A stretch of 64,000 nt of DNA. Source: an uncultured bacterium. GTDB lineage: Bacteria > Krumholzibacteriota > Krumholzibacteriia > JACNKJ01. The stretch's first letter is position 1. Each line of letters opens with the position of its first letter. Made by a program: the position numbers and the translations under genes. The notes beneath the pieces are model-generated. The model was given only the letters and a program-made list of their open reading frames with translations, was not told where the DNA came from and searched no databases. The stretch lies in the NCBI GenBank assembly GCA_964627205.1, contig CAZVHI010000007.1:7412-71411 (forward strand), written 5' to 3'. Below are positions 31,465-40,964 of this stretch, in pieces.

Positions 31465-32919
31465 CTAGAACACGCGCGCGGAGAACTCCGCTGCGGTCAG
31501 CAGGCCGCCGGGAAAGACGCCGAACCAGAGCACGAGCAGGAAGCAGAACGCGAGCAGCAGGGCCGCGGGACCCGGCACGCCGAAGGCAGGAGTCTCCTCG
31601 AACTCCTCCTTCATGTACATGAGGTAGATGACGCGCAGGTAGTAGTAGACGGAGACGAGGCTGTTGAGCACCGCGATGACCGTGAGCCCCACGAAACCTT
31701 GTCGGATGGCCTCGCTGAAGATGAAGAGCTTGCCCACGAAGCCGGCTGTCGGCGGGATCCCCGCCAACGAGAAGAGGAAGACCGCCATGAGAGCGGCCAG
31801 CCAGGGCTGGCGGCGGGCCAGGCCCGAGTACTCGAAGATCGACTGGTACTCCTCCCCCTTCCGTCCGACGAGCGTGACGACCGCGAAGGCGCCGAGGTTC
31901 ATCAGCGTGTAGGCGCAGAGGTAGAAGAGTAGGCCGCGGGTGGCGTCGCGGCTCGCGGCGACCGCGGCCACGAGCAAGTAGCCCGCGTGCGCCACGCTGC
32001 TGAACGCGAGCATGCGCTTGATGTTGGTCTGCACGATGGCCATCAGGTTGCCGACGGACATTGTGAGCACGGCCAGCCACCAGAGTACGGGCGTCCAGGA
32101 CGCGGGATCCGGCGAGAAGCCGGCGACCAGGAGCCTGAGCAGAGCGGCCATCGCGGCGGCCTTCGTCCCCGTGGCCATGAAGGCGGCGACGGGCGCCGGG
32201 CTGCCCTCGTAGACGTCCGCGGTCCAGAAGTGGAAGGGGACGGCGCTGATCTTGAAGCCGATCCCGATCACGACCAGCCAGAAGCCCGCCTGGGCCAGGA
32301 CCGGACTGAGGAGCGGACCGCCCCCCTCACCGAGCGCGCGGGCGCTCAGGTGGAGACTGCCCGTGCTGCCCCAGTGCAGCGCCATGCCCATGAGCAGGAT
32401 CGCGCTCGCGAAGGCGCCGAGCAGGAAGTACTTGAGCGCGCCCTCCACGGACCTCTCCTGCCGGCGGTGATAACCGGCAAGGATGTAGAGGCTCATGGAG
32501 AGCAGCTCCAGGGCCAAAAAGAGCGTTATCATCTCCGCGGCCGCGGCCATGAGCATCATCCCCGTCACCGCGAAGAGAAGCAGGGCGAGGAACTCGATCC
32601 GTGGCAGGCCCTCCTGGCGCAGGTAGGGCATAGCCATGAGCAGGGTGCCCAGGCCGATGAGGACGAAGAGGAAGTGGAGGAAGCGCGCCAGGGAGTCGAC
32701 GATCAGCCGGCCGCCGAAGGCCGTCTGCGCACCGTCCCCCCACTGCATCGCGATCAGCGCCAGGGCCGCGAGCAGGCCGAGAACAGTGAGGAGTTCGGAG
32801 AGGACGCCCCCGCCGTTCCCGCGGCGTCTGGGCAGCTCCAACAGGAGGAGCAGCACGGCGGTGACGACCAGGGCCAGCTCGGGGGCGATCAGCGAGAGCG
32901 TCCAGTCCACCGTGCTCAC
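31465..32919 (-). CDS. nuoN: NADH-quinone oxidoreductase subunit N
   Basis: GTG start at 32919 overlapping the nuoM stop. FLALELLS, EGALKYFLLG, GFKISAVPFHFW, KRMLAFSS. Confidence 0.95.
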   Translation of the reverse strand: MSTVDWTLSLIAPELALVVTAVLLLLLELPRRRGNGGGVLSELLTVLGLLAALALIAMQWGDGAQTAFGGRLIVDSLARFLHFLFVLIGLGTLLMAMPYLRQEGLPRIEFLALLLFAVTGMMLMAAAAEMITLFLALELLSMSLYILAGYHRRQERSVEGALKYFLLGAFASAILLMGMALHWGSTGSLHLSARALGEGGGPLLSPVLAQAGFWLVVIGIGFKISAVPFHFWTADVYEGSPAPVAAFMATGTKAAAMAALLRLLVAGFSPDPASWTPVLWWLAVLTMSVGNLMAIVQTNIKRMLAFSSVAHAGYLLVAAVAASRDATRGLLFYLCAYTLMNLGAFAVVTLVGRKGEEYQSIFEYSGLARRQPWLAALMAVFLFSLAGIPPTAGFVGKLFIFSEAIRQGFVGLTVIAVLNSLVSVYYYLRVIYLMYMKEEFEETPAFGVPGPAALLLAFCFLLVLWFGVFPGGLLTAAEFSARVF

Positions 32920-34451
32920 TCTCCTTCCCAGGTGCTCGATGCGTGGGCGGGCGGCGTGTCCACCTGCTCCACCCCGCTCTGCACGAGGAGATGCGACACC
33001 GACGCCTCCATGCGACTCAGGAAGGGCTTGGGATAGAGCCCGATCCAGAGCATGAGCAGCAGCAGCGGCAAGAGCAGGATCCACTCGCGGGGCACGAGGT
33101 CGCGCAGTGTGCGGTTCTCCTCGTGCCGGATCGGTCCGAAGAACACGCGCTGCACGAGCCAGAGCATGTAGACGGCCCCGAGGACCACGCCGGTGGCGGC
33201 AAGGGCGGCCGCCAGCTTGGAGACCTGGAAGGCGCCCAGCAGGATGAGGAACTCGCCCACGAAGCCGCTGAGCCCCGGCAGGCCGATCGACGCCAGGGTC
33301 GTGACCAGGAAGACGAAGGTGAACTGCGGCATGACGCGCGCGATGCCGCCGTAGTCGGAGATCATGCGCGTGTGCCGCCGCTCGTAGATCATCCCGACGA
33401 GCAGGAAGAGCGCGCCCGTCGAGAGGCCGTGCCCCACCATCTGTAATATGCCGCCTGAAATGCCCCGGCCGTTCAGCGCGAAGAGGCCCAGCATCACGAA
33501 GCCGAGATGGCTCACGCTCGAATAGGCCACGAGCTTCTTGACGTCGTCCTGCGCCATCGCCACCAGCGCGCCGTAGATGATGCCGACGACCGCCAGCACC
33601 ATGAACAGGGGCGTGGCCGCGGCCCAGGCAGCGGGGAAGAGCGGCAGGCAGAAGCGCAGGAAGCCGTAGGTGCCCATCTTCAGCAGCACCCCGGCCAGGA
33701 CCACGCTGCCCGCGGTGGGCGCCTCGACGTGGGCGTCGGGCAGCCAGGTGTGCAGCGGGAAGATCGGCACCTTGATCGCGAAGGCCAGGGCGAAGGCTCC
33801 GAAGGCCAGCATCTCAGGCCTTCCCTCGATCGGCGTGCTCAGGATGGCGGCGAGTTCGAAGGACCAGGACCCCGTCAGCTGCTGGTGCTGCACCACGAGG
33901 TAGAGGATGGCGGCGAGCATGAGCAGGCTGCCGACCATGGTGTAGAGGAAGAACTTCACCGCCGCGTAGATGCGCCTGCGACCGCCCCAGATCCCGATGA
34001 GGAAGTACATCGGGATCAGCATGGCCTCCCAGAAGACGTAGAAGAGGAAGAGGTCGGTGGCAACGAAGACGCCGACCATGCCTCCCTCGAGCAGGAGCAG
34101 GAAGAAGTAGTAGGCTCGCACCCGCTCGCCGATGGCACTCCAGCCGGAGAGCACCGTGATCGGCATGAGGAAGGTGGTGAGCAGGACCATGAGCAGGCTG
34201 ATCCCGTCTACGCCAACGGAGTAGCCGATGCCGAGCGCCGGGATCCAGGGCGCCGACTGGGTGAACTGCATACTCGCCGTGCTGCTGTCCCAGTGGAACC
34301 AGAGGTGCAGCGAGAGCAGGAAGGTGACGGTGGTCACCAACAAGGTCCACCAGCGGATCCACGCCGCCCGCCGCTCGGGGAGGAGGAGCACGGCCAGCCC
34401 CCCCAGGACGGGTAGGAACACGAGCCAGGTCAGGATCCAAGTATCGATCAT
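32916..34451 (-). CDS. nuoM: NADH-quinone oxidoreductase subunit M
   Basis: GVDGISL, FWEAMLIPMY, AIKVPIFPLHTWLPDAHVEAP, LLKMGTYG, KKLVAYSS. Confidence 0.96.
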   Translation of the reverse strand: MIDTWILTWLVFLPVLGGLAVLLLPERRAAWIRWWTLLVTTVTFLLSLHLWFHWDSSTASMQFTQSAPWIPALGIGYSVGVDGISLLMVLLTTFLMPITVLSGWSAIGERVRAYYFFLLLLEGGMVGVFVATDLFLFYVFWEAMLIPMYFLIGIWGGRRRIYAAVKFFLYTMVGSLLMLAAILYLVVQHQQLTGSWSFELAAILSTPIEGRPEMLAFGAFALAFAIKVPIFPLHTWLPDAHVEAPTAGSVVLAGVLLKMGTYGFLRFCLPLFPAAWAAATPLFMVLAVVGIIYGALVAMAQDDVKKLVAYSSVSHLGFVMLGLFALNGRGISGGILQMVGHGLSTGALFLLVGMIYERRHTRMISDYGGIARVMPQFTFVFLVTTLASIGLPGLSGFVGEFLILLGAFQVSKLAAALAATGVVLGAVYMLWLVQRVFFGPIRHEENRTLRDLVPREWILLLPLLLLMLWIGLYPKPFLSRMEASVSHLLVQSGVEQVDTPPAHASSTWEGE

Positions 34452-34467
34452 CGTCCCCTCGACATAG

Positions 34468-40068: not shown

Positions 40069-40555
40069 CGCCGGTGCCTCGCGTGGGGACCTGTTTCTGC
40101 AGGGGATGCCCGCGGTCGTAGTCCTCGTGCAGTAGGATGCGCCGCAGGTCTGGATGCCCCGTGAAGCGGATGCCCATCAGGTCCCAGACCTCGCGCTCGT
40201 TCCAGTTTGCGCTTTCCCAGAGGGCGGTCACCGTGGGCAGGCAGGGCTCGCCGCCTTGCTCTGCCGTGTCCGCCTGGACGCGCACGCGCTCGCCCGAATC
40301 CAGCGAGAGCAGGTGGTAGCTGACACGGAAGCGCGGCTGCCAACCCAGCCTGAGCCCGTCGACGCCGCTGATGTCGTTCAGCAACGGGAAGCTCGGCCGC
40401 GACTCATCCTTCAGCCAGGCCAGGAGATCGAGCAGGTGATCGGATCCTACGCGCAGGGTCAGCTCCCCGCGCTGGACGTCCGCCGCCAGGAGATCGGGGC
40501 CGAAGCGCTCGCCTGCCGCCGCCGCCACTGCCTGGAGCGCATCAGGCATCGCCAT
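40055..40555 (-). CDS. nuoC: NADH-quinone oxidoreductase subunit C (stand-alone, no NuoD fused)
   Basis: DISGVD, RFRVSYHLLSL, ANWNEREVWDLMGIRFTGHPDLRRILL, GHPLQK; 166 aa. Confidence 0.95.
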   Translation of the reverse strand: MAMPDALQAVAAAAGERFGPDLLAADVQRGELTLRVGSDHLLDLLAWLKDESRPSFPLLNDISGVDGLRLGWQPRFRVSYHLLSLDSGERVRVQADTAEQGGEPCLPTVTALWESANWNEREVWDLMGIRFTGHPDLRRILLHEDYDRGHPLQKQVPTRGTGDDNR

Positions 40556-40964
40556 CCCCGCGTTCGACGAGCGTACCCCGGTCCCAGTTCAGGGCCCCCG
40601 TGCCCAGGATGTAGAGGTAGCCCACGAGCAGGATGACGAGGAAGATCGCCATCTCGACGATGCCGAAGAGGCCCAGCTTCTTGTAGTGCACGGCCCAGGG
40701 GTAGAGGAAGACCACCTCGATGTCGAAGAGGATGAAGAGGATGGCCACGAGGTAGAACTTCACCGAAAAGCGGTCGCGCGCGCCCCCGCGGGGTTCCATG
40801 CCCGATTCGTAGGTGCTGAACTTCTCGGGGTAGTTGATCCGGCGGCCGACGAAACGGCTCGCCGCCACAAGGGCCGCCGAAAAGAGCAGAGCCAGGATCA
40901 GCAGGGCAAGGATCGGCACATAGGATCCGGAAGCGAACGCGTCCAGGGCCGCGGAGAACGTCAT
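40542..40964 (-). CDS. nuoA: NADH-quinone oxidoreductase subunit A
   Basis: KFSTYESG, FSVKFYLVAILFILFDIEVVFLYPWA, GALNW. Confidence 0.96.
   Translation of the reverse strand: MTFSAALDAFASGSYVPILALLILALLFSAALVAASRFVGRRINYPEKFSTYESGMEPRGGARDRFSVKFYLVAILFILFDIEVVFLYPWAVHYKKLGLFGIVEMAIFLVILLVGYLYILGTGALNWDRGTLVERGDGDA

Follow-up and report, generated by a model that had tools for sequence, protein, structure and literature searches.

Gene content and junctions of the nuo operon

The window analysed here, a stretch of 64,000 nucleotides from an uncultured marine bacterium of the phylum Krumholzibacteriota (contig CAZVHI010000007.1), carries on its minus strand an operon for respiratory complex I that comprises ten consecutive, tightly packed open reading frames (ORFs) between positions 31465 and 40964 (Table 1). 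Based on a Pfam search of the ten ORFs, each product matched one complex I family over its full length, with E-values from 1e-23 to 1e-126, and the products were identified as NuoA, NuoC, NuoE, NuoF, NuoH, NuoJ, NuoK, NuoL, NuoM and NuoN, in the relative order of the canonical nuoA–N operon. The curated NCBIfam cut-offs were exceeded by NuoF, NuoE, NuoL, NuoM and NuoN, and NuoK scored above the NF004320 cut-off. The top match of NuoC among solved structures was the NuoC subunit of complex I (8qby_C, E 5e-25). For nuoN, the longest ORF reaches position 33084, and the start was called at 32919, as in the Joint Genome Institute (JGI) annotation (484 aa), which leaves a 4-nt overlap with nuoM. The family matches for all ten products agree with the gene content A-C-E-F-H-J-K-L-M-N, lacking nuoB, nuoD, nuoG and nuoI, that an earlier note had proposed from the sequence.

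At the four positions where the missing genes usually lie, the neighbouring genes overlap or are separated by a few nucleotides. The distances reported in the earlier note (−14, −14, −4 and +10 nt) were reproduced with the longest-ORF starts. These junctions are too tight to hold a remnant of nuoB, nuoD, nuoG or nuoI, and none is present. The accompanying claim that there are neither remnants nor fusions likewise held, as NuoC (166 aa) is not fused to NuoD, the junctions leave no space, and a translated search (tblastn) of the window gave no match at E<1e-3. A promoter and terminator scan detected nothing exceeding chance, and an Rfam search gave zero matches.

Table 1. Positions of the nuo genes, their critical junctions and subunits of a neighbouring Psr/Phs-like cluster in the window
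Feature	Position	Strand	Remarks
nuoA	40542..40964	(-)	140 aa; PF00507 E 9e-36
nuoC	40055..40555	(-)	166 aa, stand-alone 30-kDa subunit, unfused to NuoD; PF00329 E 6e-39
nuoE	39577..40068	(-)	163 aa (155 aa with later ATG); PF01257 E 1e-53; TIGR01958 169.9 bits, cut-off 142.4 bits
nuoF	38271..39554	(-)	427 aa; TIGR01959 625.7 bits, cut-off 558.65 bits
nuoH	37234..38274	(-)	346 aa; PF00146 E 7e-126
nuoJ	36729..37223	(-)	164 aa; PF00499 E 1e-40
nuoK	36416..36718	(-)	100 aa; PF00420 E 5e-28; NF004320 128 bits, cut-off 57 bits
nuoL	34468..36405	(-)	645 aa; NF005141 779 bits, cut-off 556 bits
nuoM	32916..34451	(-)	511 aa; TIGR01972 648.7 bits, cut-off 263.8 bits
nuoN	31465..32919	(-)	484 aa; TIGR01770 443.5 bits, cut-off 332.6 bits
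A/C junction (usual nuoB site)	40542..40555	(-)	14-nt overlap
C/E junction (usual nuoD site)	40055..40068	(-)	14-nt overlap with longest-ORF starts; gap of about 10 nt with the later JGI-called ATG
F/H junction (usual nuoG site)	38271..38274	(-)	4-nt overlap, GTGA
H/J junction (usual nuoI site)	37224..37233	(-)	10-nt spacer
4Fe-4S subunit of the Psr/Phs-like cluster	51938-52486	(+)
Tandem NrfD-type membrane subunits of the Psr/Phs-like cluster	52425-53438, 53454-54407	(+)

Conservation of the ten-gene layout

The window sequence is contained in the 119-kb contig Ga0118727_1000266. Seven contigs encode an identical NuoF. The four of them that were inspected come from three JGI samples and one European Nucleotide Archive (ENA) assembly, and each keeps the gene order as far as its sequence reaches. 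The comparison of gene order in related metagenome-assembled genomes (MAGs) for which the earlier note had called was made on 12 related loci, all of which keep the order A-C-E-F-H-J-K-L-M-N. Their NuoF proteins are 76–82% identical to that of the window, their GC content ranges from 58 to 74%, and their subunits are 53–88% identical. Five of these loci (L005–L009), taken from a scan in which each GTDB species was represented by one genome, belong to five species with NuoF identities of 77–82%, one of them on a 3.6-Mb single contig; five others (L094–L097 and L115) came from a metagenome scan, and the remaining two (L174 and L175) from NuoC matches on contigs of 362 kb and 651 kb. One MAG among the related loci is named Candidatus Krumholzibacteriia. 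By extrapolation, the junctions in the 12 loci measure −35 to +4 nt (A/C), −14 to +53 nt (C/E), −7 to +2 nt (F/H) and 11–21 nt (H/J); all four critical junctions lie between −35 and +55 nt.

In the NuoC search, the lineage comprises about 35 clusters (formed at 90% identity), the most distant of which is 54% identical to the query; beyond the lineage the identity falls sharply, to 52% or below. One of these clusters carries the NCBI name Candidatus Krumholzibacteriia bacterium. In a neighbour-joining tree of NuoF, the lineage is monophyletic and sits on a long branch, indicating that the arrangement arose once, at the base of the lineage. The layout is real and old, and is typical of Candidatus Krumholzibacteriia. 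An artefact of assembly or binning at the four junctions, about which the earlier note had expressed concern, has a negligible probability and is excluded by the recurrence of the same junctions in assemblies made independently of one another (JGI, ENA and NCBI), among them the 3.6-Mb, 651-kb and 362-kb contigs, and in at least 12 species-level lineages.

The ten genes are intact in the related loci, except that nuoL and nuoM of one locus (L009:13312-16568, on the 3.6-Mb MAG contig) show apparent frameshifts. These frameshifts may be sequencing errors rather than signs of pseudogenes, since nuoL and nuoM are intact in all other loci of the lineage.

State of the retained subunits

The NuoF protein of the window carries the motifs GRGGAGFPCGMKW and C346-x2-C349-x2-C352...C392; its glycine-rich flavin mononucleotide (FMN) motif is present, and the cysteines of cluster N3 are residues 346, 349, 352 and 392. 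The N1a cysteines of NuoE are arranged as C88-x4-C93-x35-C129-x3-C133. The features that mark subunits of complex I, namely, the FMN/NADH site and N3 cysteines in NuoF, the N1a cysteines in NuoE and the conserved residues of NuoL, NuoM, NuoN, NuoH, NuoJ, NuoK and NuoA, are all found in this operon.

To assess constraint at all positions, the window proteins were aligned with homologues drawn from 63 loci in which the operon contains nuoB, nuoD and nuoG, with or without nuoI, and a column was counted as invariant when at least 95% invariant among those canonical-operon homologues. In the window proteins, 482 of the 496 such columns are unchanged, in line with the claim of the earlier note that the retained subunits are intact and preserve their FMN, N3 and N1a motifs. 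The subunits in contact with the missing ones retain nearly all of their invariant columns (NuoH 61/62, NuoF 114/116 and NuoE 16/16), as do NuoL (130/132) and NuoM (51/52), and the membrane subunits NuoA, NuoH, NuoJ, NuoK, NuoL, NuoM and NuoN together keep 332 of 342. The ten retained subunits are in the canonical state and under canonical constraint. One noteworthy deviation lies near the C-terminus of NuoC, where residues 152–160 (window 40076-40102) read GHPLQKQVP instead of the near-universal GHPLRKD(F/Y)P; the replacement of R and D by Q (PLRKD to PLQKQ) occurs in 7 of 10 lineage members.

The state of these genes bears on whether the operon could be a degenerating copy that yields no working enzyme. 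The absence of four essential genes from the operon would fit such decay, but the ten genes are intact at 53–88% identity in the lineage loci, the catalytic motifs are kept, and frameshifts appear in one MAG only. In addition, the span of GC content from 58 to 74% among the lineage loci indicates long divergence under purifying selection. Decay is effectively refuted by this conservation.

Searches for nuoB, nuoD, nuoG and nuoI

NuoB, NuoD, NuoG and NuoI proteins from five canonical loci were used as tblastn queries against the six frames of the 64-kb window, and no homologue was detected at E<1e-3. The only weak matches, two in number (E about 0.003–0.005; exactly 0.003 for the NuoG query from L035), both fell in a molybdopterin oxidoreductase gene at 49602-51941. 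This gene was rejected as a nuoG candidate, as it encodes a Psr-like molybdoenzyme exported by the twin-arginine translocation (TAT) pathway and is followed by a gene for an Fe-S protein and by genes for two NrfD subunits. Among the Pfam-labelled gene calls in the 10 kb past each end of the window, there was no PF01058, PF00346, NuoG-type or NuoI-type protein. Similarly, no PF00346, PF00374 or PF01058 protein was found in or near the operon; with neither a large nor a small NiFe subunit there, the operon does not encode a group 4 [NiFe] hydrogenase (Ech/Hyc/Mbh).

A NuoD of the lineage was also sought by protein similarity. A search with NuoD from the closest canonical outgroup (L010) gave flat matches at 61–69% identity, none of them bearing the name of the lineage among the best 120 listed. 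Clustering of these 120 matches gave no lineage-like group, and amino acid composition gave no discrimination. Two candidates (P0007 and P0110) were rejected, because they belong to ordinary A-B-C-D-E-F-G operons of other organisms. In an exhaustive search of representatives, canonical NuoD collapsed into one cluster, and the near-full-length NuoD representatives that were checked came from Verrucomicrobia, Bacteroidota, Thermoplasmatales and Planctomycetota, none from the lineage. A profile built on the NuoD proteins of the L100 clade recovered, among the matches listed, only that very large clade, including proteins with NC10/Methylomirabilis names.

Partial nuo operons in relatives and in the literature

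Among the loci closest in NuoF, full 14-gene operons were found in Verrucomicrobiota, Planctomycetota and Bdellovibrionota, alongside several partial forms. The most frequent partial form, A-E-F-G-H-J-K-L-M-N without nuoB, nuoC, nuoD and nuoI, occurs in about 35 loci, mostly from Thermoanaerobaculia (Acidobacteriota); these include L012, L015–L034, L036, L037, L043, L044, L049, L055, L098, L101, L104, L107, L117, L118, L125, L138, L141 and others. In the covered ±10-kb flanks of these loci, nuoB, nuoC, nuoD and nuoI were also not found, and we found no paper describing this operon form for Thermoanaerobaculia. One of these loci, L098 (NuoF 64%), was considered as an intermediate and rejected, being an ordinary member of the Thermoanaerobaculia type. 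A second form, A-C-D-E-F-G-H-J-K-L-M-N without nuoB and nuoI, was found in L035, L053, L061 and the L100/L011 clade. The order E-F-H-J-K, continuing to nuoL, without nuoG and nuoI occurs in L029 and L113; this adjacency of nuoF and nuoH without nuoG was noted in a Candidatus Sulfotelmatobacter MAG. Adjacency of nuoC and nuoE without nuoD was seen in a separate C-E-F cluster on an unrelated metagenome contig (L099). The nearest relatives found thus already have operons devoid of nuoB and nuoI and differ as to nuoC, nuoD and nuoG. This graded series of partial operons indicates that, in this region of the complex I tree, genes for the quinone module and the Fe-S wire have commonly been relocated to sites outside the operon; nuoG has left its position between nuoF and nuoH more than once.

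Two further loci were recorded in the course of this comparison. One (L170) holds a partial E-F-J-K-L-M operon; in the other (L091), a Planctomycetota-like operon, nuoH is followed by an unannotated gene of 333 aa at the nuoI position and then by nuoJ.

Split nuo operons have been described before. In Acidobacteria, nuoA-C-D-(E-F-G)-H-J-K-L-M-N operons, a form also seen here in L035, L053, L061 and L100, are listed together with nuoB and nuoI genes that lie on separate scaffolds (Hausmann 2018, PMC6018796, Table S2b), which bears out the statement in the earlier note that loss of nuoB and nuoI to other loci is known. Those operons share the sealed A/C and H/J junctions of the present one; in contrast, the acidobacterial operons keep nuoD and nuoG, whereas here these two genes are gone as well and nuoC, nuoE and nuoF stay. 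Because nuoC and nuoE, as well as nuoF and nuoH, are directly adjacent without nuoD and nuoG, the operon is a variant of the acidobacterial type lacking nuoB and nuoI and not a member of it. For Chloroflexi, a Lost City study mentions, with reference to Chadwick 2018, that nuoBCDI are split from the other nuo genes (PMC7117926). Both that arrangement and the Thermoanaerobaculia type resemble the present one in that quinone-module genes are separated from an operon in which the membrane arm stays together with nuoE and nuoF, but they remove nuoC along with nuoB, nuoD and nuoI and keep nuoG, whereas the lineage studied here keeps nuoC and removes nuoG. In Nitrospina gracilis, the NUO-2 genes are scattered as nuoACHIJKLMN, nuoEGD, nuoB2 and nuoF2 (Luecker 2013, PMC3578206). 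NUO-2 likewise has nuoA and nuoC adjacent without nuoB, and nuoD and nuoG apart from the membrane arm; however, it keeps nuoI in the main cluster with nuoE and nuoF moved out, and its NuoF and NuoG carry additional Fe-S clusters and lack a clear FMN site, unlike the canonical NuoF found here.

Compared with the canonical nuoA–N operons of Escherichia coli and Thermus thermophilus (Nqo1–14), which include nuoB, nuoD, nuoG and nuoI, the present operon lacks all four, and they are absent from at least 84 kb around it. The 11-subunit enzymes (cyanobacterial and chloroplast NDH-1, Fpo and Bacteroidota-type Nuo) also have a reduced complex I gene set. They lack NuoE, NuoF and NuoG and possess NuoB, NuoC, NuoD and NuoI, which is the opposite of the operon described here, where nuoE and nuoF are present and nuoB, nuoD and nuoI are absent. 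We found no paper describing the form A-C-E-F-H-J-K-L-M-N, and the literature on Krumholzibacteriota/Delphibacteria held nothing useful on nuo gene content. The arrangement is new in form, operon splitting itself being already known in other lineages.

Acidobacterial MAGs also carry several A-C-D-H-J.. operons per genome (Hausmann 2018, PMC6018796), which lends some support to a reading in terms of isoforms that share subunits. The ten-gene operon would then provide the membrane arm, the NADH module and NuoC of an alternative form of the enzyme, for which NuoB, NuoD, NuoG and NuoI would be borrowed from a second, complete operon of the complex I type. As NuoB, NuoD and NuoI are the most conserved subunits, redundant copies of their genes would be the easiest to lose after duplication. 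On the other hand, the two large lineage contigs (3,610,528 and 651,662 bp) each appear only once among the best 120 NuoC matches (at least 42% identity), with no second related NuoC seen, and NuoG would not be supplied by a second operon of the 11-subunit kind. A more distant second NuoC copy on those two contigs is possible. Taken together, we regard such sharing of subunits as unlikely.

Probable encoding of NuoB, NuoD, NuoG and NuoI in trans

In complex I, NuoE and NuoF attach to the rest of the enzyme only via NuoG, as seen in the structures from T. thermophilus (4HEA) and E. coli (7Z7S). Electrons reach quinone only via clusters N1b to N2 in NuoG, NuoI and NuoB, and the quinone site is formed by NuoD, NuoB and NuoH. 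Since these clusters and the NuoD/NuoB part of the quinone site reside in the missing subunits, the operon cannot by itself link NADH to quinone, and the corresponding statement of the earlier note follows from the established structure of complex I.

We consider it probable (at about 0.62) that nuoB, nuoD, nuoG and nuoI have left the operon and are now encoded in trans, elsewhere in the chromosome, either singly or in small clusters devoted to this enzyme. We infer both their existence in trans and their location. This reading is favoured by the graded partial operons in relatives, by the separate nuoB and nuoI of Acidobacteria and by the canonical constraint on the retained subunits. As nuoE and nuoF are embedded in the operon and translationally coupled, and their products dock only via NuoG, a NuoG should exist; and as the whole lineage keeps the layout, the four genes have most likely not been lost but reside elsewhere in the genome. 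The main nuo operon would accordingly supply the membrane arm (NuoA, NuoH, NuoJ, NuoK, NuoL, NuoM and NuoN), the NADH-oxidizing NuoE and NuoF, and NuoC, and the trans-encoded NuoB, NuoD, NuoG and NuoI would complete an ordinary 14-subunit NADH:quinone oxidoreductase. In such an enzyme, NADH would reduce the FMN on NuoF, and electrons would pass through N3 to N1b, N4 and N5 in NuoG, then through N6a and N6b in NuoI to N2 in NuoB, and on to quinone in the pocket formed by NuoB, NuoD and NuoH; quinone reduction would drive proton pumping by NuoH, NuoJ, NuoK, NuoL, NuoM and NuoN.

Several observations weigh against encoding in trans. The four genes were found neither in the approximately 84 kb of contig around the operon nor, by tblastn, in the flanks covered, up to 10 kb on either side, of the other lineage loci. 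Three NuoD searches showed no NuoD of the lineage, a result that is uninformative, as the best 120–150 matches were listed from thousands of near-equidistant NuoD proteins. Finally, the PLQKQ change in NuoC could reflect an altered partner, although it is also a possible co-adaptation to the trans-encoded partner subunit.

Some of these observations would also suit an alternative redox module, in which the membrane arm and NuoC, NuoE and NuoF work with non-Nuo (hydrogenase-like or Fdh-like) subunits in place of NuoB, NuoD, NuoG and NuoI. The absence of the four genes from the contig and the flanks covered, the altered PLRKD motif in most lineage members and the presence nearby of other quinone-linked enzymes, such as the Psr-like cluster, are consistent with it. 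Nevertheless, NuoH, NuoA, NuoE and NuoF keep nearly all of the canonical-invariant residues, and there is no conserved candidate for a substitute beside the operon, where the downstream genes vary and the conserved upstream genes encode a helicase-exonuclease and an unannotated 309-aa protein with a hydrophobic N-terminus. We know of no hybrid of a Nuo membrane arm and NuoC, NuoE and NuoF with a non-Nuo module, and consider this alternative highly doubtful.

Encoding of the four subunits in trans also allows an extension, which we regard as doubtful, in which the membrane arm with NuoC, NuoE and NuoF forms a fixed chassis and the separately encoded NuoB, NuoD, NuoG and NuoI would be independently regulated or exchanged, for example as alternative sets or for a non-Nuo module, under sulfidic versus oxic conditions. 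If that were true, complex I in this phylum would be a modular enzyme with exchangeable cores.

If the four genes are in trans, the operon would take a known trend further than any other documented case, and together with the spectrum of partial operons it would imply that textbook operons greatly understate how fluid the gene order of complex I is in Acidobacteriota-like, Methylomirabilota-like and Krumholzibacteriota lineages. In such MAGs, scoring complex I as 'incomplete' on the basis of operons or KEGG modules will be misleading. The arrangement raises the questions of how a 14-subunit enzyme is assembled stoichiometrically from at least two, perhaps five, transcription units, and why the N1b-to-N2 wire and NuoD are the parts that have been uncoupled. 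If no nuoB, nuoD, nuoG and nuoI exist, or if several sets do, a new modular form of the enzyme would be at hand.

Flanking genes

In the lineage loci examined, the genes upstream of the operon are kept in the order SpoU methylase, 1067-aa helicase and 309-aa protein, followed by nuoA. In the window, the helicase gene and the 309-aa gene lie directly upstream of nuoA on the minus strand (41017-45146), with a 4-nt overlap. The 1067-aa protein is a UvrD/PcrA-like helicase into which a DEDD (RNase_T) exonuclease domain is inserted. The 309-aa protein is fast-evolving (32–46% identity), has a hydrophobic N-terminus and gave no match in Pfam or NCBIfam; it was considered as a substitute subunit and rejected. 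The genes downstream of the operon differ among members of the lineage.

On the plus strand at 49602-56116, the window carries a Psr/Phs-like cluster that encodes a molybdopterin oxidoreductase with a TAT signal (779 aa), a 4Fe-4S subunit and two NrfD-type subunits (Table 1), and is followed by genes for a Sulf_transp sulfur-transport protein and a rhodanese-domain protein. To judge from its predicted products, this cluster suggests respiration of polysulfide or thiosulfate. Very large secreted proteins are encoded on the minus strand at 1-3413 and 11891-16741, and also at L088; these include a 945-aa Big_1-like protein and a 1616-aa Peptidase_C25/FG-GAP protein with a FlgD_ig-type C-terminal domain.

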